Below are positions 1,072 through 30,685 of a DNA stretch of 38,886 nucleotides, piece after piece. The stretch's first letter is position 1, and each line of letters opens with the position of its first letter. The translations under genes and the position numbers were made by a program. The stretch is from positions 1 through 38,886 of the IMG/VR virus record IMGVR_UViG_3300033125_000723; one strand, given 5' to 3'. This DNA is from a virus. Its lineage: Duplodnaviria; Caudoviricetes. The notes beneath the pieces were generated by a model. The model was given only the letters and a program-made list of their open reading frames with translations, searched no databases and was not told the DNA's origin.

Positions 1072-1332
1072 TTATTTTAAAGGCTGATTTCTATAGTAAC
1101 AATCATCAATTTCTTTTTGCATGGCCAAGGTGATTCCATACTTATACAAAACAGAGGGCCGTGTAACACTGCGTCGGTATTGGGGAATCTCAGAATCAAT
1201 TACAATATCAGTCGGGAGATGCTTATAACATCGGGTCTTAGTCTTATAACGTCCGGATATCGAATAATACACGGCAGGCCGTAAACAACAGTCACAGGTA
1301 TAGGCACTCTTGGCAGTCGAATAGTCTTCCAT
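1072..1332 (-). CDS. Hypothetical protein (Cys-containing)
   Basis: 86-aa ORF translationally coupled to the upstream gene. Confidence 0.65.
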   Translation of the reverse strand: MEDYSTAKSAYTCDCCLRPAVYYSISGRYKTKTRCYKHLPTDIVIDSEIPQYRRSVTRPSVLYKYGITLAMQKEIDDCYYRNQPLK

Positions 1333-1598
1333 TACTGATCCATGGTAAACAGAACTTGTGACTCATGAATATGTAGTTCACCAAATCCAATATCAGTACC
1401 CGTATGCCTGCGCATAAAGATATAATCACCCGGCTTACACAGTTCTTTATAGGTCAATTCTCCCACAAATAGAACCTTTGCTTTTTGCAATTCCGTCTCA
1501 AATCCTTCGGATATAATAATGCCCGATTGCGTGACCTGTTCGTTAGATACGGGTTCAACGATGAGTGTACCTTTGTTAGGTTTTTTTACTAAATTCAT
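1332..1598 (-). CDS. groES: GroES/Cpn10-like co-chaperonin
   Basis: KP..GTLIVEP...EQVTQSGIII mobile loop, AKVLFVG, KPGDYIF, HESQVL; 88 aa. Confidence 0.85.
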   Translation of the reverse strand: MNLVKKPNKGTLIVEPVSNEQVTQSGIIISEGFETELQKAKVLFVGELTYKELCKPGDYIFMRRHTGTDIGFGELHIHESQVLFTMDQ

Positions 1599-3899: not shown

Positions 3900-4405
3900 T
3901 TCTTATCCTTTTTCTTTTGTTTATATTCTTTTCCTGCTTCAGTTGGATTTACCTGCATTCCAAAATAATTTATTATGCCCTTGGTTGCTGCCACAGTTGC
4001 GTCTTGCTTTTGCTTATCTTCGTATTCTGCCAAGTCTGGATTATAAAGAGGCCGCTCTCTGTTTATGATTTGAGCAAATTTTCCTTCTTTTATTAAGATT
4101 GCATTATGTCGGGACTTTAGAAACGCATAAAGCTCTTGTATATATTCCTGAAAAATTGGCTCCTGATTCGGCCATTGTTTTCTTATTTTGTAGGGTGCAT
4201 ATCCCTTAGAGATTGCAAAGTCATCAATATCAACAGCCCATTCATTTGTGGTGTAGAATGTACGCATTTCTTCGATAAGTGAAACCCATCCTGAAAGCAT
4301 TTTGGGTTTTTTTGCGTCTGTTAGCTCTCTTTTCTTCTCTTTACGTCGCGCGTTCATTAGCGTTGCTTCTTCAGTAGATCGTACTCCACGATATCCAATG
4401 CTCAT
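3896..4405 (-). CDS. Hypothetical protein, candidate terminase small subunit
   Basis: 169 aa, helical, basic C-terminus, two genes upstream of terL; function inferred from position only. Confidence 0.45.
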   Translation of the reverse strand: MSIGYRGVRSTEEATLMNARRKEKKRELTDAKKPKMLSGWVSLIEEMRTFYTTNEWAVDIDDFAISKGYAPYKIRKQWPNQEPIFQEYIQELYAFLKSRHNAILIKEGKFAQIINRERPLYNPDLAEYEDKQKQDATVAATKGIINYFGMQVNPTEAGKEYKQKKKDKK

Positions 4406-4794
4406 GTTAGCTCCGTTATTTTAAAGTATACGCGCGGGTGTTTATCATAGATGGCAAGCCATGATCCCTGTGCGCATTGGCGGTCATCGTGCCATACTAC
4501 AGCAGTTTGTGTAATGGAATCTTTTATGTGTTTTATTAAGTTATCTTTATCGGGAGTTGTCCAATGATAATAGACTTCTTCGGGTTTTCGTTTTCGTTTG
4601 GGAAAAGGCATATAAAAGATAATATCAAGGCAGAGTGGCCCATTGAATTTAGGTTCGGACCCATGAGTCCGTGCTATAGAAAGGCCATAGGCTAGTTTCT
4701 CATGGGTTTGAGTATCATAGTAATGGCCGTTGGCATGGCCTGCTCGTTTCCAGGCTATGGGCTTGATGTCTATCGTGTATTCTTTGCTTCTCAT
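4402..4794 (-). CDS. rusA: RusA-family Holliday junction resolvase
   Basis: PDKDNLIKHIKD and WHDDRQ acidic motifs; PRVYFKITEL end. Confidence 0.9.
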   Translation of the reverse strand: MRSKEYTIDIKPIAWKRAGHANGHYYDTQTHEKLAYGLSIARTHGSEPKFNGPLCLDIIFYMPFPKRKRKPEEVYYHWTTPDKDNLIKHIKDSITQTAVVWHDDRQCAQGSWLAIYDKHPRVYFKITELT

Positions 4795-4874: not shown

Positions 4875-5186
4875 ATGAAATTAAATACGCTGCTGCATGC
4901 CTTTCAGGATGAGTTTAAACGGGAGTGGGAGAACTATGTTAAACAGGATGAACGTCTGATGGCCTTTCGGGGGAAGGAGATTAATGAGGGTAATATTGGG
5001 GTGATCAATGAGATCGTAACTGAGATACAGGATAGTTACGCGCGTATGCATGAGTCTTTGTACTATATCCACAACGCGGCTCCTAATTGTATGGCGTTGA
5101 TAAAAGAACATAAGAAGTTTGTGGATGATCTTAAGGCGGCCGGTGGCGTACCTGATAAGCCCGTGGTTGAAGAGGTGAGCGCATGA
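4875..5186 (+). CDS. Hypothetical protein, first gene of the rightward early operon
   Basis: AAGGAG RBS; divergent from rusA. Confidence 0.75.
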   Translation: MKLNTLLHAFQDEFKREWENYVKQDERLMAFRGKEINEGNIGVINEIVTEIQDSYARMHESLYYIHNAAPNCMALIKEHKKFVDDLKAAGGVPDKPVVEEVSA

Positions 5187-5842
5187 ACAGAAGTGAGAGT
5201 ATAGATAAGTTAGTAGAATCCTTTAGTAAAGCGCAGGGTTCTTTTAAGAGACTGGTCCCTAACGAGTATGCGGCCGGGGGTAAGTTTGCGAACTTAGAGG
5301 CGGTATTAGATTCGGTCAGAGAAGCCTTGAGTTCTAATGGGTTGAGCTTTTACCAACAGATTGAGCTTCTTGAGGATGGCAATGGGGTGAGTCTGTTGCA
5401 TAGTGTTATTAGTCACAGTAGTGGCCAGTGGATAAGCACCAAGAGTAGAATCGTACCCGGGCCTACGTTTAGAGAGACGTTTAATTGTATAGAATCCTAT
5501 CGGAGATTGAGTGCGTTATTGTTGTTGGGCATAGCACCCAGTGGTAATGATCCGTTGATCCATGATGATAATGGTCAGGAACAGCAGGAAAAGGAGATGG
5601 TAAAGAATATTAAGCGGCCTGAGCTTGCGGTAAAGAGTGAGTTTCCTGAAACGGTAACGGCTGATCAGTATAAAGAGCTTATGTTCGAGCTTGATGGGTA
5701 TCCTGATATCGCTAAGGGGATCCAGGTGTTTTATAAGATCAGTTCATTGGCTGACTTGCCCAAGAGTGAGTACTATGTGGTACAGAATAAGATACGCAAG
5801 CTGAAAAAGACTCATGAAGATTATGCGGTGGCAAAACGATGA
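5183..5842 (+). CDS. erf: ERF-family single-strand annealing protein
   Basis: KFANLEAVLDSVREALSSNGLSFYQ, HSSGQWIS, SYRRLSALLLLGIA, DDNG. Confidence 0.85.
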   Translation: MNRSESIDKLVESFSKAQGSFKRLVPNEYAAGGKFANLEAVLDSVREALSSNGLSFYQQIELLEDGNGVSLLHSVISHSSGQWISTKSRIVPGPTFRETFNCIESYRRLSALLLLGIAPSGNDPLIHDDNGQEQQEKEMVKNIKRPELAVKSEFPETVTADQYKELMFELDGYPDIAKGIQVFYKISSLADLPKSEYYVVQNKIRKLKKTHEDYAVAKR

Positions 5843-6096: not shown

Positions 6097-6534
6097 ATGA
6101 AGATGCTTGTCTGTTTGTTGTTGTCTCAATCCATGTCTGCCATGCAATCCCCCAAGGCACTACGCCAGTCTACCTTTGTGGATATGCCAGCCATAGAACG
6201 AGACAGGTCACAGGACTTTCCCGGTGTGATGGTAGTACATAGAGGTGATACCCCTTCTGCTGAATCCTTACGGGTACCTATTCCAAGAATAGACGCCTCA
6301 AGTGATCTGCACAGAGGCAAGAGACTGTCTCAAGAGATACATATACACATAGAAGATCGCAAGGATACGCCCAGCACCCCCGCTAATAGTACCGAGGGTT
6401 CTGAAGATACCATACCCAAGCACAGTCATAATCGCAGAATGGTTGTGAGTAATAGCCTGTCTGCTATAGTTGCTACATTGGTCACGGCAGGCGTGACGTT
6501 GGCGATACACTTTAGTAGTTGTAAGAAGGATTAA
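6097..6534 (+). CDS. Signal-peptide protein with C-terminal transmembrane helix
   Basis: MKMLVCLLLSQSMSAMQ N-terminus, disordered middle, hydrophobic AIVATLVTAGVTLAI. Confidence 0.7.
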   Translation: MKMLVCLLLSQSMSAMQSPKALRQSTFVDMPAIERDRSQDFPGVMVVHRGDTPSAESLRVPIPRIDASSDLHRGKRLSQEIHIHIEDRKDTPSTPANSTEGSEDTIPKHSHNRRMVVSNSLSAIVATLVTAGVTLAIHFSSCKKD

Positions 6535-6940
6535 AATTGGGAATGTATACCGAGTTGGTATTAAAATGCCGACTGAAAAACAAAGAAGAATTACCAGAAG
6601 AGGTTAAAGAGGTTTTGTTGTATTTATTTGGTGAAAATCACCCAGAAATGGATCAACAAAAGTTGCCTGAACATCCTTTCTTTAAAACACCACGGTGGCA
6701 TATGATTGGTAGTTGCTCAAGCTATTCTCATGTCCCCTATCCTTATAACTATCTTAATTTCGACTCTGGCAAACTATTTTCACGAAGTGATTTAAAGAAT
6801 TATGATAATGAAATTGAATTATTCAGCAATTGGTTGATGCCCTATTTAGATCCAGAAATGAATGATTTTATGGGGTGGATTTGGTCCGAGGGATCACCCA
6901 AGCCAAAATTTATACACTTTAGTAGCTGTAAGAAGGATTA
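6505..6940 (+). repeat. 29-bp direct repeat (6505-6533 and 6912-6940, 28/29 identical) bracketing gene 6537-6941
   Basis: atacactttagtagYtgtaagaaggatta; both genes end in IHFSSCKKD. Confidence 0.95.
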
Positions 6941-6941
6941 G
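6537..6941 (+). CDS. Phage hypothetical protein (MGMYTE-type N-terminus)
   Basis: 134-aa ORF with LKNYDNEIELF..WL.PY motif; start is TTG 6537 or ATG 6543. Confidence 0.75.
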   Translation: MGMYTELVLKCRLKNKEELPEEVKEVLLYLFGENHPEMDQQKLPEHPFFKTPRWHMIGSCSSYSHVPYPYNYLNFDSGKLFSRSDLKNYDNEIELFSNWLMPYLDPEMNDFMGWIWSEGSPKPKFIHFSSCKKD

Positions 6942-6943
6942 AA

Positions 6944-7555
6944 ATGAAATGTTTTACCAATAATTGTACTCAAGAAGCAATTGCGCCTCGTAGCATGTAT
7001 GGACTTGATAAAAAGGGAAACCCAACAAAAAAAACAGGGAACCCTATCTTGGATGAACAAAGATGGCTCTGTGCCGATCACTTAATGGAAAATCGCTGGC
7101 AGCAAGAGATGACGCAAACATGGTGCTTTTTCCTTTTAAAGCGATATATGGCAGTACTAAAAAATCTCTACCATACGCCCGATCATGACAAGGACCTTTT
7201 GAATGACATTGAAACATCGTTTTTACCGTGTGTGCGTGGTGAATGTCAAGGCTGCACCCAATACCCCAAACAATGTCATAATCGTGAGATCACTTTTGAT
7301 GAAAGGTATCAAGATTATATCGATGCATGGCACTATGCGCAGAGTGAATTAATAAAAAAAAGAAAATTGTCATGTACAAAACCTGACTGCGTGCTGTGCC
7401 ATGACGCGCAAAAGTGTATTTTCTCTGATTGCAAAGAATCAGCTTTTTATCCTGTGTTTAATGGAAGCCCGTTAATTACAGGATATCAATGCGAAGGCCA
7501 TCGTTATGCAAGGCCGAATGATAGGATGTTTCCAGTTTTTAAAGGAAAAGAATGA
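6944..7555 (+). CDS. Cys/His-rich hypothetical protein, probably zinc-binding
   Basis: Repeated CxxxxC and CxxH motifs. Confidence 0.7.
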   Translation: MKCFTNNCTQEAIAPRSMYGLDKKGNPTKKTGNPILDEQRWLCADHLMENRWQQEMTQTWCFFLLKRYMAVLKNLYHTPDHDKDLLNDIETSFLPCVRGECQGCTQYPKQCHNREITFDERYQDYIDAWHYAQSELIKKRKLSCTKPDCVLCHDAQKCIFSDCKESAFYPVFNGSPLITGYQCEGHRYARPNDRMFPVFKGKE

Positions 7556-12871: not shown

Positions 12872-13429
12872 TTAAAACGGTAACGGATCGCCATTTCTAT
12901 CGCCAAATGGATCATCATCAGAGTAGGCCTTGTTTCGTGGCTCCTGGTATTGATTTGGTTGCTCATAGGTGTTTACCTTCTTTTTGAGCAAAGGAGGAGC
13001 TTGTCGTGTCGGCTGAGGCTGTGCCGCAGGTCGTACCGCTTGGTATTCCAAGTTCTGTTTCTGAGTAGCAGGGGTAGTCTGTAACTTCTCAGGTAGAGGT
13101 GCAAGATTCTGCTGCTGCACCATGGCTTCCACCTTATAGGCATTGATCCAGGTTTGCCAGATTGCATTACCCTCTTCATCAACCTTCTTGGTATCCTTGT
13201 TGGTAAGGTTACCCTCAATGCGAATATTATCGCCCTTCTTAAAACGTTCAACGATGGCTTGAGCCGTAGTGCCTCGAGCAGAAATTGTTGCCGTATAGGT
13301 CAAATCCTGCATCGTCCCATCCTTCTTCTTAAAGGATCGGGAATTCTTAATGCGTATAAGTGTCGAGTTGAACTCAGTCAACTTAGGTTCCGAAAGCAAA
13401 ACGCCTTCAATGATAACTTTATTTTCCAT
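12872..13429 (-). CDS. ssb: Single-stranded DNA-binding protein
   Basis: NKVIIEG...EP, FKKGDNIRIEGNL OB-fold motifs, Q/P-rich linker, acidic DDDPF...DPLPF tail. Confidence 0.9.
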   Translation of the reverse strand: MENKVIIEGVLLSEPKLTEFNSTLIRIKNSRSFKKKDGTMQDLTYTATISARGTTAQAIVERFKKGDNIRIEGNLTNKDTKKVDEEGNAIWQTWINAYKVEAMVQQQNLAPLPEKLQTTPATQKQNLEYQAVRPAAQPQPTRQAPPLLKKKVNTYEQPNQYQEPRNKAYSDDDPFGDRNGDPLPF

Positions 13430-13616: not shown

Positions 13617-13682
13617 TTGTTATAATTGTTATAAGTTAATTATCGCATAATGTTTGACATATGTAAAGCAATATGTAATAAT
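13617..13682 (+). promoter_or_regulatory. Divergent control region: tandem 9-bp repeat (ttgttataa x2, 13617-13634) and sigma70-like promoter TTGACA-17-AATAAT
   Basis: TTGACA at 13654-13659; TGn-AATAAT at 13674-13682. Confidence 0.6.
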
Positions 13683-13718: not shown

Positions 13719-14000
13719 ATGGAAGAAACAAAACAATCACAATGGCTTATCACGGCTCAGCTTTGCTATCAAATTCAACAAGAACGAAAAAGCTTAGAGC
13801 AAAAAGAAAAAGAACTGTTTGCACAACTTAAGGCGTTATCTGAGAATAAGACTCGTCATGAAGGTGGCTTCATCTACATGAAAGAGATGAGAGCAGGCTC
13901 TATCGAGTATGCGGCTATTGATATACTCAAGGACGTCAATTTAGAGCTGTTTAGAAAGCCATCAGTAGAAACGTGGAAATTAATACGAGTTGCTGAATAG
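13719..14000 (+). CDS. Small protein resembling the C-terminal extension of YqaJ-type phage exonucleases
   Basis: GAGGA RBS before ATG 13719; coiled coil then RAGSIEYAAIDILKDVNLELFRKPSVETWKL; no nuclease domain. Confidence 0.5.
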   Translation: MEETKQSQWLITAQLCYQIQQERKSLEQKEKELFAQLKALSENKTRHEGGFIYMKEMRAGSIEYAAIDILKDVNLELFRKPSVETWKLIRVAE

Positions 14001-14059
14001 TCACTGCTCGTACGGTCCCTGCTTTGGTTACTCAGGCAGGGGCCACAAAAAGGATAGAG

Positions 14060-15589
14060 ATGATTATAAAAATGTATTCTGCCGTTACTATCGGCATCGA
14101 TTCGCGTATCATACCCATAGAAATTGATTCTGAGTCCTTTGCTCATTTTGCCCTTTCAGTGATCGGGTTATCTGAGTATTTTGCGACACAGATGAAAAAG
14201 CGTATAGAGATCGCTTGTAAGAATAATGGTATTGAGCTGCCACCGCTTAAGATTACGGTCAACCTGGGTCAATTTCAGGGGGATAAGAGTGATATTATCA
14301 TTCTTGATCTACCCATAGCCCTGGGGATTCTTAAGATACTCAGAATGTTTGATGACCCCCAGTCTATTATTAATCACTCGGTCATTGTGGGTGAGCTGGG
14401 TCTTGATGGGGTTGTTCGTCCCATCAAGGGAGCATTGTCCATTGCTATAGAATGTGCTGCGCAAAAGAAGGCTTCTTTAATTGTGCCCATGGCCAACACC
14501 AAGGAAGTAGAGATTGTTGAAGGCATCGATATGTATGGGGTCTATTCGCTCAAGCAGATTCTTGATAATCAGGAGATAAAGAAGGTAGCGCGTGCTACCG
14601 CACCACGAAAGCCACAGATACACGCCAAAGACTTTAGTGAAGTGCGTGGCCAATCACTTGCTAAAAGAGCTATGGTTATCGCTGCGGCAGGTCATCATAA
14701 TATTATCTTTATGGGGCCACCAGGGTCGGGTAAGACCATGCTTGCCGAGCGGTTGTGTACCATCATGCCACCCATGTCCTATGAAGAGTCATTAGAGACA
14801 TCACGTGTCTATTCATCGATGGGATCGTTTCATGATCTGATTATTGAACGGCCTTACCGTTCTCCCCATCATACCACTACATTGCCGGGACTTTTGGGCG
14901 GTGGTATCAATCCCGCTCCGGGTGAGATATCGCTGGCCAATAACGGGATATTGTTTCTTGATGAGTTTACGGAGTTTACCCCAAAGGTATTAGAATCACT
15001 TCGGCAGCCGTTAGAATCCCATCAAGTGAAGATTATACGAAGATCCCAGACTATTACCTATCCTGCTAAATTCTTGCTGGTAGCTGCCTTCAATCCGTGT
15101 CCTTGTGGCTATGCGGGTGATACCAAAAGAAAGTGTGAGTGTTCACGATTATTGATCGCTCACTATCTTGCCAAGATCTCAGGGCCAATCTTAGATCGGA
15201 TTGATGTGCAGGTAGCCTTACGTGCGGTTGAGTATACCGAAATAGAAAGTAAGACCCCCGAGCTCTCATCACAGCAGATGGCGCTTATGGTCTCAAAAGC
15301 AACTCTCATGCAAAATAAGCGGTTTGGTGACAGGCCGATACGCAACGGAACGATGACTGTTGCAGATATAGAACTGTGTTGTACATTAACTCCATCAGCG
15401 CAAGAGCTTATCAAGAAAGCGTTTGATGTTTTAAAACTATCCATGCGGGGATACCATAAAGTATTGCGTATTGCCCGTACCATCGCTGATCTTGAAGAAA
15501 GTGACCTGATACAGGACCATCACATAAAAGAATCACTCACCTATCGCGCCCTTGATCAATCCATAGCCAAGTTAAAGCAGTATGAATAA
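14060..15589 (+). CDS. comM: ComM/YifB-family AAA+ ATPase (MCM-like hexameric helicase; 'Mg-chelatase-like')
   Basis: ITVNL, DLPIALGIL, GELGLDG.VRPI.G, Walker A GPPGSGKT, RPYRSPHHT, PGEISLANNGILFLDE, NPCPCG, SGPILDRID, SMRGYHKVLRIARTIADL; AAGGA RBS before ATG 14060. Confidence 0.95.
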   Translation: MIIKMYSAVTIGIDSRIIPIEIDSESFAHFALSVIGLSEYFATQMKKRIEIACKNNGIELPPLKITVNLGQFQGDKSDIIILDLPIALGILKILRMFDDPQSIINHSVIVGELGLDGVVRPIKGALSIAIECAAQKKASLIVPMANTKEVEIVEGIDMYGVYSLKQILDNQEIKKVARATAPRKPQIHAKDFSEVRGQSLAKRAMVIAAAGHHNIIFMGPPGSGKTMLAERLCTIMPPMSYEESLETSRVYSSMGSFHDLIIERPYRSPHHTTTLPGLLGGGINPAPGEISLANNGILFLDEFTEFTPKVLESLRQPLESHQVKIIRRSQTITYPAKFLLVAAFNPCPCGYAGDTKRKCECSRLLIAHYLAKISGPILDRIDVQVALRAVEYTEIESKTPELSSQQMALMVSKATLMQNKRFGDRPIRNGTMTVADIELCCTLTPSAQELIKKAFDVLKLSMRGYHKVLRIARTIADLEESDLIQDHHIKESLTYRALDQSIAKLKQYE

Positions 15590-16591
15590 CGAATACACAA
15601 TAAAATTTGTTCCAACTAAACAGCCAACTGCAAAGCATAACGGGCCTGCTCCATTTGGATATTGCTGGAAAAGTTATCCAGAAAAAAAAATTAAGGGGAA
15701 AAGAGTTAATCCGAGAGCAGAGATAATAATTGATGATAAAAAAGCAGTTATTTTACAAGATATTTTCCAATTATATGCTTTAAACTTATACAATTATATC
15801 TCGTTAGCTGATGAAATTAATAAAAAATATAAAACTCGTTTTTCTCATAAATATATAAAAAAAATTCTACATAATAAGTTTTACAATGGATATTTTTTAA
15901 ATGCATTACCACATGATTATCCCAAAATAGTACCAGATGAAATTTTTAAAAAAGTAGAAAAAATTCTAAAATTGAGAAAAAAATTTGGTACCAACAAAAT
16001 ATTGAAAAATAAATACAAATATCAGGGAGTATTGTCATGCTATTATTGCAATACAACTCTCTCAAGACAACTGCATAAAGGGAGATCAATTTATCGATGT
16101 CTTGGTTATAAAAATGTTTCAAAAAAAAATCATGCCAAAAAAAGCTTTCTTGAAAAAGAACTGGATTTAGAATTTAAATATTTTTTTAAAAAAATATTTT
16201 CTCAAAGCGATCTAAGGCATGCAATTCCTGATTCATTAAAAAAAGAGTCATTAAGCATCGAAGAAACACAAAAATTATTCAAAATGCTTTTTGAGCACAT
16301 TAGCATCGATAGCAATATGAATATTACCTATGTTTTATGGGATTTTAAAAATGATAATACCCTTACGGATGTTGCCGCTCAATCGCTAGAAAAACCCCAA
16401 AAAATAGTCGATGAAACTGCATCATTAGAGGAAAAGATCATTCACTTATCTGCAATCCCACAATCGATTGATTCATTGGCTGAATTGTTAAATAGACCAA
16501 TCTCAGATATACAAATTGCTCTAATAGACCTCGAGCTACAGGGAAAAATCGAACAACACATTGAGGGCTATTGGAAATCAGTATGAATAAC
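15578..16591 (+). repeat. 13-bp direct repeat cagtatgaataac (15578-15590 and 16579-16591) bracketing gene 15582-16586
   Basis: Exact match; each copy spans a stop/start junction. Confidence 0.85.
15582..16586 (+). CDS. Serine-recombinase DNA-binding domains (recombinase + Zn ribbon) fused to a DprA-type winged helix; no catalytic domain
   Basis: APFGY, ILHNKFYNG, PKIVPDEIFKKV, YQGVLSCYYC..YRC; C-terminus PQSIDSLAELLNRPISDIQIALIDLELQGKIEQHIEGYW. Confidence 0.8.
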   Translation: MNNEYTIKFVPTKQPTAKHNGPAPFGYCWKSYPEKKIKGKRVNPRAEIIIDDKKAVILQDIFQLYALNLYNYISLADEINKKYKTRFSHKYIKKILHNKFYNGYFLNALPHDYPKIVPDEIFKKVEKILKLRKKFGTNKILKNKYKYQGVLSCYYCNTTLSRQLHKGRSIYRCLGYKNVSKKNHAKKSFLEKELDLEFKYFFKKIFSQSDLRHAIPDSLKKESLSIEETQKLFKMLFEHISIDSNMNITYVLWDFKNDNTLTDVAAQSLEKPQKIVDETASLEEKIIHLSAIPQSIDSLAELLNRPISDIQIALIDLELQGKIEQHIEGYWKSV

Positions 16592-17611
16592 CAAAAAAAA
16601 CAATTTAAGAACATATATTCAAAAATGGCTTCGTTCGAAGCAGTGGAAAATAAGAAAGAAAGATTAGAGCAAGGTCTGCATACCAGCACAGCACCCTTAG
16701 GTTACAAATGGGAGCGTATTGGAAGCCGACGGCGGGGATATTCGGTATTAGCCGTTGATAAATATACGTCCGTTATCGTGAAAGATATATTTCGCGCCTA
16801 CGCAACGGGAGCGTATAACTATGAAGCGATGAAAGAGTATATAAATAAGCGCTGGGATATGAGAAAAAGTAAATTCTCTACTCAGACCCTTTTATGCAAT
16901 CCCTTCTATCGTGGCATCTTAAAAACGAAATTCGGCCAAGCGCCCCATGCATATGAACGTATTATTGATGATGCTCTGTTTGATAAGGTGCAAGAGGTCA
17001 TGAAAAATAGACAAGTGACCTATGCACGCGCAAAACAGAACACCAAGAAAAAAGAATATTTATATAGTGGCCTGTTAAAATGTGGCTCATGTGGATGCCA
17101 GATCACCGTAGAAAAGCATAAAGGCATAATCTATTATCATTGCACGCAATCGAAAGGTAAGCATAAAGCGCCATGGATTAATCAGGCTGCTCTTACGGTT
17201 CTTATAAGAGATAGAATAATTCCCTATCTACAAGATGCTCAAACACTAAATTGGGGCATTCCTGTATACCCTGAGATACTCAAGGATCAAGAGCAGACTC
17301 GTACATTGCTGTGTTTCCTGTTTAAGAAGATTACTTTCAATCAAGACAAAACACTTACCGTTACCCCATGGTCTGCGCAAGAGTTAGCATCATTACAAAA
17401 ACGTAAAGAGAAACCTGTCGATATGGGTTCTGTTGATCCGCTGGGTGATCTCAATACTAATATTCTTTTACTGTGTCATCTGCCGCAATCGATAGATTTC
17501 TTGTGTCTTACTTTAGAAAAGGATCTGGATACCATACAAACAGCTCTTATTGATTTACAGTTGGATGGCAAAATAGACCAAAACCTCGAAGGATCATGGG
17601 TTATTTTATAG
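16583..17611 (+). CDS. Paralogue: recombinase + Zn ribbon + DprA-type winged helix; no catalytic domain
   Basis: APLGY, LLCNPFYRG, ERIIDDALFDKVQ, YSGLLKCGSCG..YYHC; C-terminus PQSIDFLCLTLEKDLDTIQTALIDLQLDGKIDQNLEGSW; ATGA-coupled start at 16583. Confidence 0.82.
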   Translation: MNNQKKQFKNIYSKMASFEAVENKKERLEQGLHTSTAPLGYKWERIGSRRRGYSVLAVDKYTSVIVKDIFRAYATGAYNYEAMKEYINKRWDMRKSKFSTQTLLCNPFYRGILKTKFGQAPHAYERIIDDALFDKVQEVMKNRQVTYARAKQNTKKKEYLYSGLLKCGSCGCQITVEKHKGIIYYHCTQSKGKHKAPWINQAALTVLIRDRIIPYLQDAQTLNWGIPVYPEILKDQEQTRTLLCFLFKKITFNQDKTLTVTPWSAQELASLQKRKEKPVDMGSVDPLGDLNTNILLLCHLPQSIDFLCLTLEKDLDTIQTALIDLQLDGKIDQNLEGSWVIL

Positions 17612-17696: not shown

Positions 17697-17900
17697 ATGA
17701 AGAACGATATGCCACAGATATTAGAACGCTATGGGGACCCGAGTATCTTTGATACAGCGCCCTATTTAAGCGTGTGTATTAATACCTCTGATAATACCGT
17801 ATGGGTACAGATGGCCAAAGATGAAGATGCGGTACAATGGATGGCATTTGATTCTATTGAAGAAGCATTATTATTTGCAGAAAATAAGAAAAAAATTTAA
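17697..17900 (+). CDS. Hypothetical protein
   Basis: 67-aa ORF with AAGG RBS. Confidence 0.65.
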   Translation: MKNDMPQILERYGDPSIFDTAPYLSVCINTSDNTVWVQMAKDEDAVQWMAFDSIEEALLFAENKKKI

Positions 17901-17929: not shown

Positions 17930-17960
17930 CTCCTCCTCTGTCCTACGAGGAGGAGTTTTT
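17930..17960 (+). terminator. Rho-independent terminator
   Basis: ctcctcctc-8 nt-gaggaggag then ttttt. Confidence 0.75.
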
Positions 17961-22437: not shown

Positions 22438-23049
22438 CTAACAATTAGGCCGCACATGCTTCCAGGATTTTCCATGTTTGATTTCCCATATAGCAGTTGC
22501 GCTCACATTGTATTTTTTTGATATTTTGTTCATTTTTATACCTTCTGCTAACAACTTTCTTATTTCTTCTACTTGTTCATAAGTTAGTTTTGGCTTTATT
22601 TTAGTACGACCTTTCTTAGCCATATCTCGCATGTTGTCGGTTTGGTTTCCTAAAAATAGATGGTCTGGATTGCTACAGCACGGATTATCACATTTATGCA
22701 GTACCCATTTTTCTTTAGGTATTTCTTCAAAATGCAAAATCCAACTAGCTCTATGGGCTTTTATAGGTTTCCCCCGATGTCTCATAGTTCCATAGCCTTG
22801 ATAATTTTTTGAAGCATTCCAATCCCAGCAACCTTCCTTACGTATAACATATTTTTCAAAACGTATTTTTAATGCTTGTTTATTCTGTTCCTTGGTTTCA
22901 TTTTTCCAGTCATTTTTCCTTTTTTCATCTTGTTCCATTTTTGTTAGTTTCGACAAACAACTTAATGAACAAAACCTAGCTTTAGGACGTTTTGATTTTA
23001 GAAAAAAAAATTCCTTGGAACAGTTGTCACAATTTTTTTTTATTTTCAT
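22438..23049 (-). CDS. Free-standing HNH homing endonuclease
   Basis: N-terminal CxxC...FCSxxC finger, CWDW...GYG...AHRASW...VLHKCDNPCCSNPDHLFLGNQTDNMRD, C-terminal HTH; AT-rich. Confidence 0.93.
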   Translation of the reverse strand: MKIKKNCDNCSKEFFFLKSKRPKARFCSLSCLSKLTKMEQDEKRKNDWKNETKEQNKQALKIRFEKYVIRKEGCWDWNASKNYQGYGTMRHRGKPIKAHRASWILHFEEIPKEKWVLHKCDNPCCSNPDHLFLGNQTDNMRDMAKKGRTKIKPKLTYEQVEEIRKLLAEGIKMNKISKKYNVSATAIWEIKHGKSWKHVRPNC

Positions 23050-27578: not shown

Positions 27579-28121
27579 TTAATTTTTAAGATACTCGGCA
27601 ACGATATAAACATTATTGAATACTACACCACTATTATTAGTGATCACAATCTGTGTTGAATTTGCCCGTATTTCGATGTTCGCGGCGCCCCCTGCCGATG
27701 CAAAGGGAATAGGATAATAATTGAATGTAGAGGTATTGTTGGCCATACCAATAAGTTTGGTAAAGGTATACTGGGCAGTAAGGGGAGTTGTGCCATTAAT
27801 AAGGTGTGTAATATTCGTAACGCCGGCAGGCAATGAGGTTAAATAAAACACCTTTCTAAAGTCTGAGCGTGGTTGGTCGTTGACCCCCTTGTTAGGGTTG
27901 GGGTCAAACCAGCCTTGGCCATTCACAAACTCAGTAAGGTCATAGATGCCTGAGTCCTTTTTGTTAAGAGCAAGCGCAATGTTGTTCACCGTTTGATAGA
28001 GGACTACTAATATCTGCTTTAACCCTGGTCCAAGATCATCAGCGCTATTTATCGTATCGATTACCGTTGTCGTTGGTATGTATAAGCCGGTGTCGTTCTT
28101 TTGATCGGGAATGTATGCCAT
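27579..28121 (-). CDS. Putative tail-associated virion protein
   Basis: 180 aa with N-terminal helix and beta-rich C-terminus; coupled to the nozzle gene. Confidence 0.6.
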   Translation of the reverse strand: MAYIPDQKNDTGLYIPTTTVIDTINSADDLGPGLKQILVVLYQTVNNIALALNKKDSGIYDLTEFVNGQGWFDPNPNKGVNDQPRSDFRKVFYLTSLPAGVTNITHLINGTTPLTAQYTFTKLIGMANNTSTFNYYPIPFASAGGAANIEIRANSTQIVITNNSGVVFNNVYIVAEYLKN

Positions 28122-30685
28122 TATGACCTCATACGGGTAGAAGATTTTTTAGCATAGAAGCAGATCGAATGCAGTTGAAAATCCACAAACGAAGGGCCTG
28201 TATACGATATAATTCCAGAACCGTTATCTATGCGTATCACCTCTTGCATCTGATCATCGTCCATATAGATATTGAGCTGTATAAACTCACCGTCCGCTTG
28301 AATATAGACCGGGTGTACCAATCGTGTTGCTGCTGATTCAAGGGCGTTGTAGGGGAATGTCTCGAGAATACCGGTACCTACGATGGAATTTGATTGATTG
28401 GGTGACGAAGCAGTCAGCATTGATTGCTGTGAGGTTGACACATAGTAATCGATGCTCACTTCTCCGGATGATGTCGCGTCTACCTGAAAATCCATCTCAA
28501 AAATGTTGAGATTGCGGCCTTCTTTGGCATAGAAATTGAACTCTTTGGTATCAAAATCTATTTGGGATACCCGTGCGAGAGTTCCACCACCCGAGTAGGT
28601 TCCGTTAATGACTACTACGGGGTTAGTTGGATCAAAATAGGTGATCACAAAAGTATTTTGTGTGGGTTGCTCTTCTATTTTGAAGATTCTGTTGTTAAAC
28701 AGGGTGAGGTTACCAGTACCTGTTATGGATTCAAAGTAGATAAAGTCACCAGGTCTTAGGTTATGATCAACAACGGTAAAGGTAATTACGTTAGGGGTGA
28801 GCACGTTCACGGTCATATTGGTTATTTGCAGTGCCGGTGCGTTGGTAGTTGCGTTTGCATCAATAACGAATGTCCAGCCTTCCTGGTTGCCCGCGATAAC
28901 GTTCTTAAAGAGTGCTCCTGCTTCACCTGAGTTCCATGCAATATCGTCATCCCAGGTTACAATCTCTGAGTTCCAGGTAATACCAACTGGCTGTGGAAAG
29001 AAATACCCAAAGGCAGTAATAGAATCGTCATTAAACGCCCAGGCACCGTTCTTGTAGTTATAGACTAAGACACGGTTTGGATACGGAAATTCAGCCGTTG
29101 CGTCTGTTGCAGGGAAGGTCCAATAGATCATCTCCACAAAGAAGTCACGGATCCCGAACACCCGTTCAGGGCCCGATTGGGTATTATGGATATTAAACAC
29201 TTCATCAGGGATATCGTTATCAATACGTTCTACGTTAGTACCGTTACATTGATGGATACCGTTCTGTCCTACACCGATGGCTACTTTATCAAAGGGGACT
29301 ATTGAGAAGGTCGATTCTGCACCCAGCTCGGTGTTAATTTGTTGCCAGTCAAACGGGTAGATTTGGTTAGCCGTATAGACAAACTCCCACGTAGAATCCT
29401 CAAAGTAGACAATGAGCCGGTCTTTAACGAATTCGGTCGTAATAATCGCTTGGTTTACCGGCGCATCACGTCCTGAGCCCTGGCCGGGGATGTCTTGTCT
29501 CCAGGCGTTGGTAGCAGTCGGATCACCAACGGCACACCAGCGTGCCCGAAAGGGATACTGTTGCAGTGTTACCGGACCGCCACTGTCTTGCGCTTCCCAT
29601 ACGTTAAACGCTACAAGTCTGTTTTTGAAGGGAACCAAAAGCCGAGCTGACTGTAAATTAATATTAAGCGTAGCGCCTGAGGATGTGTCACTAATACGAG
29701 GGAAGAAATACTGCCACAGGTTATTAAATAAATAACGCATCTGTTCGTTCTGGTTGAAATTTGTTACGTAGAGCACCTTATTATTAGCGTCTACGCCTCC
29801 ATAGTTTGCGCCCCAGAAGAATTGTGAGTTAGAGCCTGACCATACCGATGCACCGGCGGATGCTTCACCATTAAGCCGTTCCCAGCCCCCTGAGTACTGG
29901 TAGGCATAGCGTGTATCAAAAGCGATCGTCAGTTCATTGTTGATAGCATCTCTATCGTACAGAATAAGGCCCATAACGGGTAACGCTGGATAGAAATAAA
30001 GTGGCGATAAGAGTGGTGCACCAGTGACCGTATAATAATTTGTTGTAGTATTGAGGGTAAACGTACCAGCTCCCGTATTAAGCAATACTACGGGCGTGCC
30101 TAATGCGTTGATGGTATACAGTTGGTTTACTATAGATATCATTTGCCCAATGCTTGAGCTTGCTCCTGGCAATACACCCGTAGCTGCTCCAACACCATCG
30201 GTCGTTCCTAACCCAGCTGGCGCGTAAGGGGATCCATAAAAATACACGTTTGTTAAAGCAGGTGCTCCCGCAAAGGTGTAAGCTCCCGTTGCCGTGTCGA
30301 ATGTCTTTGTTGGCGTTGCTGCATTAGGGTCAAGTTCAGTAAGAACAATGGGGCTTCCTAATGAATTTGCTTGATAAAACTTATTGCCAATCCAGAATCG
30401 CTGCCCTACTAATCCACTGGCTCCTGGGACAACTCCTGCAAGATTGCCTGCACCATCAGTAACACCTAATAAAACTCCTGCGTTTGCCAATGTAGTTCGT
30501 AATCGTGTTTCTTGTTGGGTATTTCCCAGCCATCGTGATCCGAATCGTTTACGTACTCTACCACGCCAGACATACACGTTGTTCATGCGGCTGAACGCTT
30601 GGTCCGGCACGAGCCACGGCCGAACATCTTTTTGCAGTCCTGAACTCTGGTCATAGGGAGCTATGAAAAATCTGTCTATTGGCAT
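28121..30685 (-). CDS. Tail nozzle / DNA stabilisation protein (P22 gp10 / T7 gp12-like)
   Basis: 854 aa; NVYVWRGRVRKRFG start, beta-propeller-like FKNRLVAF...RARWC..GDP, VLVYNY...WA. Confidence 0.8.
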   Translation of the reverse strand: MPIDRFFIAPYDQSSGLQKDVRPWLVPDQAFSRMNNVYVWRGRVRKRFGSRWLGNTQQETRLRTTLANAGVLLGVTDGAGNLAGVVPGASGLVGQRFWIGNKFYQANSLGSPIVLTELDPNAATPTKTFDTATGAYTFAGAPALTNVYFYGSPYAPAGLGTTDGVGAATGVLPGASSSIGQMISIVNQLYTINALGTPVVLLNTGAGTFTLNTTTNYYTVTGAPLLSPLYFYPALPVMGLILYDRDAINNELTIAFDTRYAYQYSGGWERLNGEASAGASVWSGSNSQFFWGANYGGVDANNKVLYVTNFNQNEQMRYLFNNLWQYFFPRISDTSSGATLNINLQSARLLVPFKNRLVAFNVWEAQDSGGPVTLQQYPFRARWCAVGDPTATNAWRQDIPGQGSGRDAPVNQAIITTEFVKDRLIVYFEDSTWEFVYTANQIYPFDWQQINTELGAESTFSIVPFDKVAIGVGQNGIHQCNGTNVERIDNDIPDEVFNIHNTQSGPERVFGIRDFFVEMIYWTFPATDATAEFPYPNRVLVYNYKNGAWAFNDDSITAFGYFFPQPVGITWNSEIVTWDDDIAWNSGEAGALFKNVIAGNQEGWTFVIDANATTNAPALQITNMTVNVLTPNVITFTVVDHNLRPGDFIYFESITGTGNLTLFNNRIFKIEEQPTQNTFVITYFDPTNPVVVINGTYSGGGTLARVSQIDFDTKEFNFYAKEGRNLNIFEMDFQVDATSSGEVSIDYYVSTSQQSMLTASSPNQSNSIVGTGILETFPYNALESAATRLVHPVYIQADGEFIQLNIYMDDDQMQEVIRIDNGSGIISYTGPSFVDFQLHSICFYAKKSSTRMRS

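Follow-up and report, generated by a model that had tools for sequence, protein, structure and literature searches.

What does a phage do with an intact copy of comM, the gene of a host transformation enzyme that mobile elements tend to break, and with two proteins of a new family encoded directly behind it? The question is raised by the virus record IMGVR_UViG_3300033125_000723 (Duplodnaviria; Caudoviricetes), a stretch of 38,886 bases which represents an entire phage genome and is called the window here. An original prediction, made from the letters of the window alone, read the locus as a putative sequence-specific loader plus helicase, and it placed a small open reading frame (ORF), comM and two further genes in this order. 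The positions of all four genes, which lie on the plus strand, were confirmed (Table 1). The loader reading is supported by the recurrence of the protein family together with comM, by purifying selection and by the published ComM-recruiting role of the winged helix in which these proteins end. We consider it probable that the two proteins, named A and B, are ComM loaders.

ComM and the domains of proteins A and B

The comM gene was expected to be intact, and this proved correct. Its product scores 459 bits against TIGR00368 (cut-off 362), contains the ChlI, Mg_chelatase and Mg_chelatase_C domains (Lon-like domain, AAA+ module, C4 zinc finger and Mg-chelatase C-terminal domain) and matches Legionella ComM (8RXD) along its length with an E value of 9e-97. 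The Walker A and B motifs, the sensor and arginine-finger residues R315, R380 and R463, and the four cysteines of the C4 finger are retained in all 14 phage ComMs. According to PMC11612176, from which the residue assignments for the Lon-domain DNA contacts were taken, ComM encircles B-form double-stranded DNA (dsDNA) and is a proposed dsDNA translocase. Among these contacts, K46 is kept as K or R in 14/14 and K64 in 13/14 phage ComMs, and the K43 position is unconserved.

Proteins A and B are 31% identical. The proposal that the att-recognising domains of a serine recombinase stand in place of the DprA Rossmann core is in agreement with our data. Pfam detects the Recombinase domain with 38 bits in A and 33.5 bits in B; the zinc ribbon (Zn_ribbon_recom) reaches 30 bits in B and 16 bits, below cut-off, in A. 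Across 41 family members, the Recombinase domain is found in 40 and the zinc ribbon in 32, and the zinc ligands C/C/C/H are retained in 41, 40, 41 and 35 members, respectively. The DNA_processg_A Rossmann core, responsible for the binding of single-stranded DNA (ssDNA) and for RecA loading, is absent from A, B and all 41 members. The N-terminal catalytic (Resolvase) domain with its serine is likewise absent from A, B and the family members tested. Both proteins also lack the coiled coil, and A has no N-terminal helix; B keeps a remnant of helix E and represents the widespread form of the family. When compared with 20 close full-length integrases, the family profile aligned to residues 130-475 of the first one. 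About 100 residues of coiled coil are skipped in this alignment, the strand closing the zinc-ribbon domain is kept, and the winged helix comes after it. A coiled coil inside the zinc-ribbon domain was not found, and the predicted models show short helices only. These models of B and A have a mean predicted local distance difference test score (pLDDT) of 87 and 85, respectively, and the top fold match of both is the C-terminal part of the Listeria (LI) integrase (6DNW and 4KIS). In that integrase, recognition of a 25-bp half-site falls to the recombinase and zinc-ribbon domains, and synapsis is brought about by the coiled coil (PMC3783163). Since the catalytic domain and the coiled coil are absent, the parts for chemistry and site pairing have been lost and the DNA-reading parts kept. 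The DNA-binding parts carry net charges of +25 and +18. By homology, A and B likely bind specific dsDNA sites.

Both proteins had been predicted to end in a DprA-like winged helix. The tail of A matches DprA_WH (PF17782) with 33.5 bits (cut-off 22.9) and obtains an Atlas feature score of 0.92, all 30 hits lying within the DprA winged-helix set. The tail of B remains below the Pfam cut-off, yet it aligns with the winged helix of A and folds as a winged helix in the model. The claim is therefore upheld by the profile for A, and for B by homology and fold. Of the further families proposed for the locus, ChlI, Mg_chelatase, Recombinase and, in B, Zn_ribbon_recom were found, the zinc ribbon of A stayed under its cut-off, and Resolvase gave no match. 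In V. cholerae as in H. pylori, the domain by which DprA recruits ComM is its winged helix (10.1101/2024.10.21.619469 = PMC12012524). In H. pylori it does not bind DNA and contacts the Mg-chelatase domain of ComM in a species-specific manner, and in V. cholerae the helix-3 residues L350, E353 and L354 are needed for ComM binding (10.1101/2024.10.21.619469). Helix 3 of the phage family reads Q-x-x-L-[FIM]-D-L-[QE]-L. Its register hydrophobic-x-x-Q/E-hydrophobic is kept in 40, 35 and 41 of the 41 members at the three positions, which map to the V. cholerae residues by spacing only, and real DprAs align in the same register. The winged helix of A has a net charge of -5 and that of 40 of the 41 members is net acidic, which fits protein docking. 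Neither the winged helix nor the family profile gave more than chance matches in sequence searches of the PDB.

Recurrence, linkage to comM and selection

When representatives clustered at 50% identity were searched with a profile, 150 proteins were listed. Family-derived profiles assigned 45 of them to the recombinase–zinc ribbon–winged helix type and 71 to ordinary integrases; four more carry two to four tandem recombinase domains and the winged helix, and five have two recombinase domains and an unscored tail. In the tree, one branch separates the family from 28 integrases, with an SH-like approximate likelihood ratio test (SH-aLRT) support of 92. As judged from these sequences, the loaders are a conserved family and not debris. 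The contigs of 18 members and of four tandem forms do not exceed 39,828 bases, and seven are 34-40 kb long, sizes that fit a phage-only range of the family. The tandem proteins (P0250, P0254, P0261 and P0264; also P0263, P0275, P0288, P0297 and P0314) resemble repeat arrays of a DNA reader. They have two to four recombinase domains, up to five in the raw search, and no zinc ribbon; four end in the DprA-type winged helix, and P0254 lies on a contig of 39,828 bases.

The pairing of comM with a loader was found again in related phages. A loader adjoins comM, read directly, in L002, G046, G047 and G048, of which the near-copies G047 and G048 are counted as one lineage. Ten further ComM clusters, 53-89% identical to the window ComM, form one clade with it (100/100); the ComMs of G046, G047 and G048 are more distant (39-40%). 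For six of the ten clusters a loader is present on the same contig, in L002 by direct reading and in five by contigs of equal size. The six equal-size ComM and loader pairs measure 5,058; 11,147; 21,608 and 30,986; 38,623; and 4,743 bases. P0004 (2,383) and P0123 (2,384) were excluded as a contig match. The contig of P0265 was taken for G023 (both 39,004) and rejected because G023 has no loader.

The comM-dprA order, thought to be preserved, is kept in the window and in the remnant of G028; in the four other intact loci read (L002, G046-G048) comM and the loader are divergent. The G028 remnant (L095:1416-1740) joins the first 76 comM codons to the final codons encoding the winged helix of a loader. 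If this is not an assembly fault, it shows that one deletion of about 2.2 kb or more removed comM and loader together, and the gene order of the window thus existed in another lineage. In the four divergent loci the loader is followed by a small ribbon-helix-helix-like gene, which has no match in the window and scores over cut-off with no Pfam family. The divergent promoter of these relatives contains inverted repeats. ERF and RusA are both present in the window, L002, G046 and G047, and in the window, L002, G001 and G028 either ERF or the gene of the single-strand binding protein (SSB) is found close to comM or the module.

Among terminase-related loci, at least 80 were found, and 43 of these and two integrase loci were examined. 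In the corresponding 44 records, 8 of them at least 90% complete, comM occurs once (the G028 remnant) and the loader profile three times (the G028 remnant and two integrase records). Two loci from the search with alignment A7 were rejected as loaders; both encode ordinary full-length integrases. Scans of viral contigs with A, alignment A1 and the clade motif gave no match, the clade-motif scan of genome contigs gave three chance matches only, and few members came back from a word-index search that used the family alignment.

A branch supported by 97/97 separates 13 phage ComMs from 28 presumed cellular ones; the tree is unrooted with long branches and does not prove a single capture. GenBank phages yielded 31 ComM matches, all below 60% identity, and the 20 matches listed are mostly unannotated gut fragments, with some bacterial contigs. 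The complete relative G001 encodes a ComM (L001:9992-11497) that is 56% identical to cellular copies and 41-46% to the window clade. No loader accompanies it; an HNH-like gene and then ERF lie downstream. This comM is possibly a separate capture.

Between G047 and G048 the ratio of nonsynonymous to synonymous substitution rates (dN/dS) amounts to 0.076 in comM and 0.114 in the loader gene, compared with 0.019-0.146 in four other genes. The values are thus not near 1, as decay would require, and by this measure the loader family is under purifying selection. For a related strain in run X8, 18 of 22 changed comM codons and 9 of 13 in B are synonymous in the subset of differences available. Proteins A and B had been described as paralogues. 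They are homologues, but not sisters in the tree, and the GC content of A (0.289) is far below that of B (0.393) and comM (0.448). Because A is AT-rich, is not the sister of B and is flanked by the same 13 bases at both junctions, it is likely a later insertion or second acquisition, rather than a local duplicate, and would add a second specificity.

Proposed function and competing explanations

We propose that the loader would bind a dsDNA site through its recombinase and zinc-ribbon domains, as its integrase homologues do, and that its winged helix, by analogy with DprA, would dock the cognate phage ComM. From the bound site ComM would translocate or branch-migrate, and the gene context suggests that this action would serve ERF/SSB/RusA recombination of the phage. 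The species specificity of DprA-ComM pairs would explain why the phage brings its own ComM. The module most likely serves phage recombination, and our tentative view is that the locus is an accessory module in which loaders target dsDNA sites, recruit phage ComM and drive branch migration. Put more generally, and with the same reserve, integrase-derived readers that occur singly or as arrays with as many as four or five repeats, and that are exchanged between phages, may represent modular, sequence-addressed motor loading that places ComM to drive or undo recombination.

Several observations weigh against this recombination role or against parts of the loading mechanism. The tail of B reaches only 12.9 bits with DprA_WH, only 13 of 41 members reach this family at E 0.01, and the match of the family winged-helix profile to three real DprAs is weak (E 0.013-0.13). 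Searches for a target site gave no shared over-represented word, and repeat searches were also empty; in the divergent promoters of relatives only inverted repeats unrelated to one another were found, and no common target site. ComM and loader divergences correlate over 10 pairs (rho 0.85, p 0.0005), which shows co-inheritance of neighbouring sequences and not contact between the proteins. G001 has comM without a loader, and the presence of comM on the contig is known for only a minority of loaders. In G047 and G048 the module lies between terminase and portal, away from ERF. Finally, divergence is much faster in the loaders than in ComM (median identity 29% versus 53%), which fits a role in conflict at least as well.

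Such a conflict role is the main rival, although we rate it as rather unlikely. The loader mechanism would be the same, and ComM would be loaded at att-like sites of rival serine-integrase elements or at host loci, where it would displace the integrase or undo recombination intermediates; alternatively, host ComM would be sequestered. Beside the fast divergence, this is consistent with the second, AT-rich loader with its own predicted specificity, with the arrays of two to four recombinase domains ahead of the winged helix, with the patchy and mobile distribution of the module, and with the frequent disruption of comM by mobile elements reported in PMC12378983. On the other hand, the phages keep a catalytically intact ComM, a cost that simple inhibition would not require; no target element is known, and neither A nor B has a match in PADLOC.

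Among other functions, the original prediction suggested origin recognition, with the loaders marking the origin and ComM as replicative helicase. We regard this as improbable. It was based on the lack of any other helicase or initiator. The ORFs scanned in the window, G046, G047 and G004 indeed include no other recognisable helicase or primase, but the window has an initiator-like gene, which matches a G028 gene (39%) and the C-terminal part of the L002 gene (31%). Relatives carry this gene upstream of rusA. Its helix-turn-helix exceeds the cut-off in G004 and G048, gives weaker matches in G001, G047 and L002, and is absent from G046, G028 and the window; a replication role may thus be left for the window phage. 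A precedent is given by the MCM-like Cch of SCCmec (PMC7581432). An essential role is weakened, however, because the syntenic complete relatives G004 and G016 have neither comM nor loader (40,000 of the 42,414 bases of G016 were read and the whole record searched), G028 has deleted the block, and the carriers L002, G046, G047 and G048 retain the initiator-like gene. The module also changes place, as accessory cassettes do: its neighbour is SSB in the window and the initiator-like gene in G046, ERF is close by in G028, and in G047/G048 terminase and portal flank it. G004 encodes at L099:14720-16432 a 571-aa protein with an 'integrase repeat unit' (PF14882) and HTH_17, beside two ERF genes.

It is less probable still that A and B are transcription regulators merely linked to comM, with the winged helix as a second DNA-binding or a Z-DNA-binding domain. 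The divergent-promoter layout, the inverted repeats and the ribbon-helix-helix-like gene in four relatives would suit regulators, as would the weak matches of the tail folds to Z-alpha and MarR domains. The winged helix is, however, acidic in 40 of 41 members, and both Atlas and Pfam group the tail of A with DprA. Helix 3 of ADAR1 Z-alpha carries N173 and Y177 (PMC11298590), and this Asn/Tyr pair is absent from helix 3 of the family.

Decaying integrase remnants beside a passively captured host gene, as the missing catalytic domain and the fragments in G028 might suggest, are scarcely credible and refuted at the family level by the two deletions and the fusion shared by 45 full-length clusters, the single branch against 28 integrases and a dN/dS of about 0.1, with the exception of A, which has no orthologue for comparison.

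Locus features, genome setting and known systems

Table 1. Positions of the module genes, associated signals and context genes; window coordinates unless a locus is named
Feature	Position	Strand	Basis or remark
RusA resolvase	4402-4794	-	context gene
ERF single-strand annealing protein	5183..5842	+	context gene
Homologue of relatives' initiator-like gene, without N-terminal helix-turn-helix	11471..12367	-	context gene
Single-strand binding protein (SSB)	12872..13429	-	context gene
Opposed leftward promoter-like site, back to back with the rightward one	13667-13639	-	promoter scan
Sigma-70-like promoter, best site (11/12, extended -10)	13654..13682	+	promoter scan
Small phage protein, 93 aa	13719..14000	+	ORF; likely co-transcribed
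comM (YifB family), intact	14060..15589	+	Pfam, TIGR00368
13-nt repeat at comM-A junction	15578..15590	+	exact copy at A-B junction, 16579-16591
Loader A, 334 aa (putative)	15582..16586	+	Recombinase, zinc ribbon, DprA winged helix
Winged helix of A (residues 280-326)	16419..16559	+	Pfam, Atlas
Loader B, 342 aa (putative)	16583..17611	+	Recombinase, zinc ribbon, DprA-type winged helix
Terminator-like hairpin, downstream of 67-aa ORF 17697-17900	17930..17955	+	likely transcript end
Ribbon-helix-helix-like gene, 61-66 aa, overlaps loader stop	L002:5791-5976	+	fold guessed from pattern
Ribbon-helix-helix-like gene, 61-66 aa, overlaps loader stop	L110:10954-11154	+	fold guessed from pattern
Ribbon-helix-helix-like gene, 61-66 aa, overlaps loader stop	L113:4757-4957	-	fold guessed from pattern

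A single promoter, as had been suggested, is plausible for the locus: the best site precedes the small gene, and the whole scan returned 18 promoter-like sites against 18.3 expected, which is chance level. The ATG of A overlaps the comM stop by 8 nt and the ATG of B overlaps the stop of A by 4 nt. As 56 different 13-mers recur at least twice on the same strand, the 13-nt repeat of the junctions is notable by position only. In river and soil data from other studies (X5, X6 and X7), contigs span both the comM-A and the A-B junction with 0-1 differences, so the gene order is real and not an assembly artefact. In run X8, comM and B of the related strain are covered and A is not, and no contig joins across. 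The small protein had been counted as part of the module. It belongs to no Pfam family and has no match beside comM in L002, G047 and G048. It does have a 32% match in G004, a phage without comM, and is therefore placed outside the conserved module.

Beside the genes of Table 1, the window encodes terminase, portal, major head protein, tail proteins and GroES. The portal frame is continuous across both record ends (692 codons open), which indicates a circular genome. No candidate for the Resolvase catalytic domain was found in the window genome (the control was positive in 12 of 14 genomes), and no integrase was recognised among the ORFs scanned. The two taxon-named ComM matches among the best 120 are Babeliaceae and Dependentiae (48-49% identity), and judging from these two the phage group likely infects Babeliota. 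The module points to a phage group not yet described. The GroES co-chaperonin gene directly follows terminase in the window (1332-1598) and in G004 (27955-28242). An HNH endonuclease with a helix-turn-helix lies amid the tail genes (22438-23049). A 35-nt direct repeat (91%; 6505-6539 and 6912-6946) stands on either side of the ORF 6537-6941, which shares its final nine residues with the preceding ORF and resembles a cassette insertion.

No description of a phage-encoded ComM or of an integrase–DprA winged helix fusion was found in the open-access literature. The parts and the contact of the winged helix with ComM are already known; the fusion, the tandem arrays and the phage-borne ComM module appear to be new. 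If the proposal is true, it represents a new viral use of a transformation helicase and of serine-integrase domains. The DprA winged helix would be a portable ComM handle, the loading of ComM on duplex DNA could do without an incoming strand, and integrase DNA-binding domains could serve as adaptors and repeat arrays, of which natural specificity variants would be on offer. ComM loading and direction would become testable in a two-protein system on a defined site.

The module shares with the DprA-ComM pair of natural transformation (10.1101/2024.10.21.619469 = PMC12012524) an intact ComM and a co-inherited partner ending in a DprA winged helix. In contrast to this pair, it is phage-encoded, has no YraN alongside, and the ssDNA-binding, RecA-loading core of DprA is replaced by integrase domains whose dsDNA binding is predicted. 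With the C-terminal part of large serine recombinases (4KIS/6DNW; PMC3783163) the loaders share the recombinase domain and zinc ribbon, their order, the zinc ligands and the best fold matches. They differ by an added winged helix and by lacking both the catalytic domain and the coiled coil that mediates synapsis; in some relatives, tandem recombinase domains occur without a zinc ribbon. SCCmec is likewise mobile and encodes an MCM-like helicase and an ssDNA-binding protein, with serine-recombinase genes nearby; Cch, however, is not ComM but is related to the self-loading SaPI Rep helicases, and CcrAB are active recombinases (PMC7581432). The recombinase part of the phage loaders would in contrast act as a non-catalytic adaptor. 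TnsD-TnsC of Tn7 and RuvA-RuvB use a protein that recognises DNA to load an AAA+ ring at a selected position. The phage module has no homology to these systems and contains neither a transposase nor a junction-binding domain. By their domains the loaders are neither DprA nor integrase, and they likely act in the manner of the loading step of DprA.

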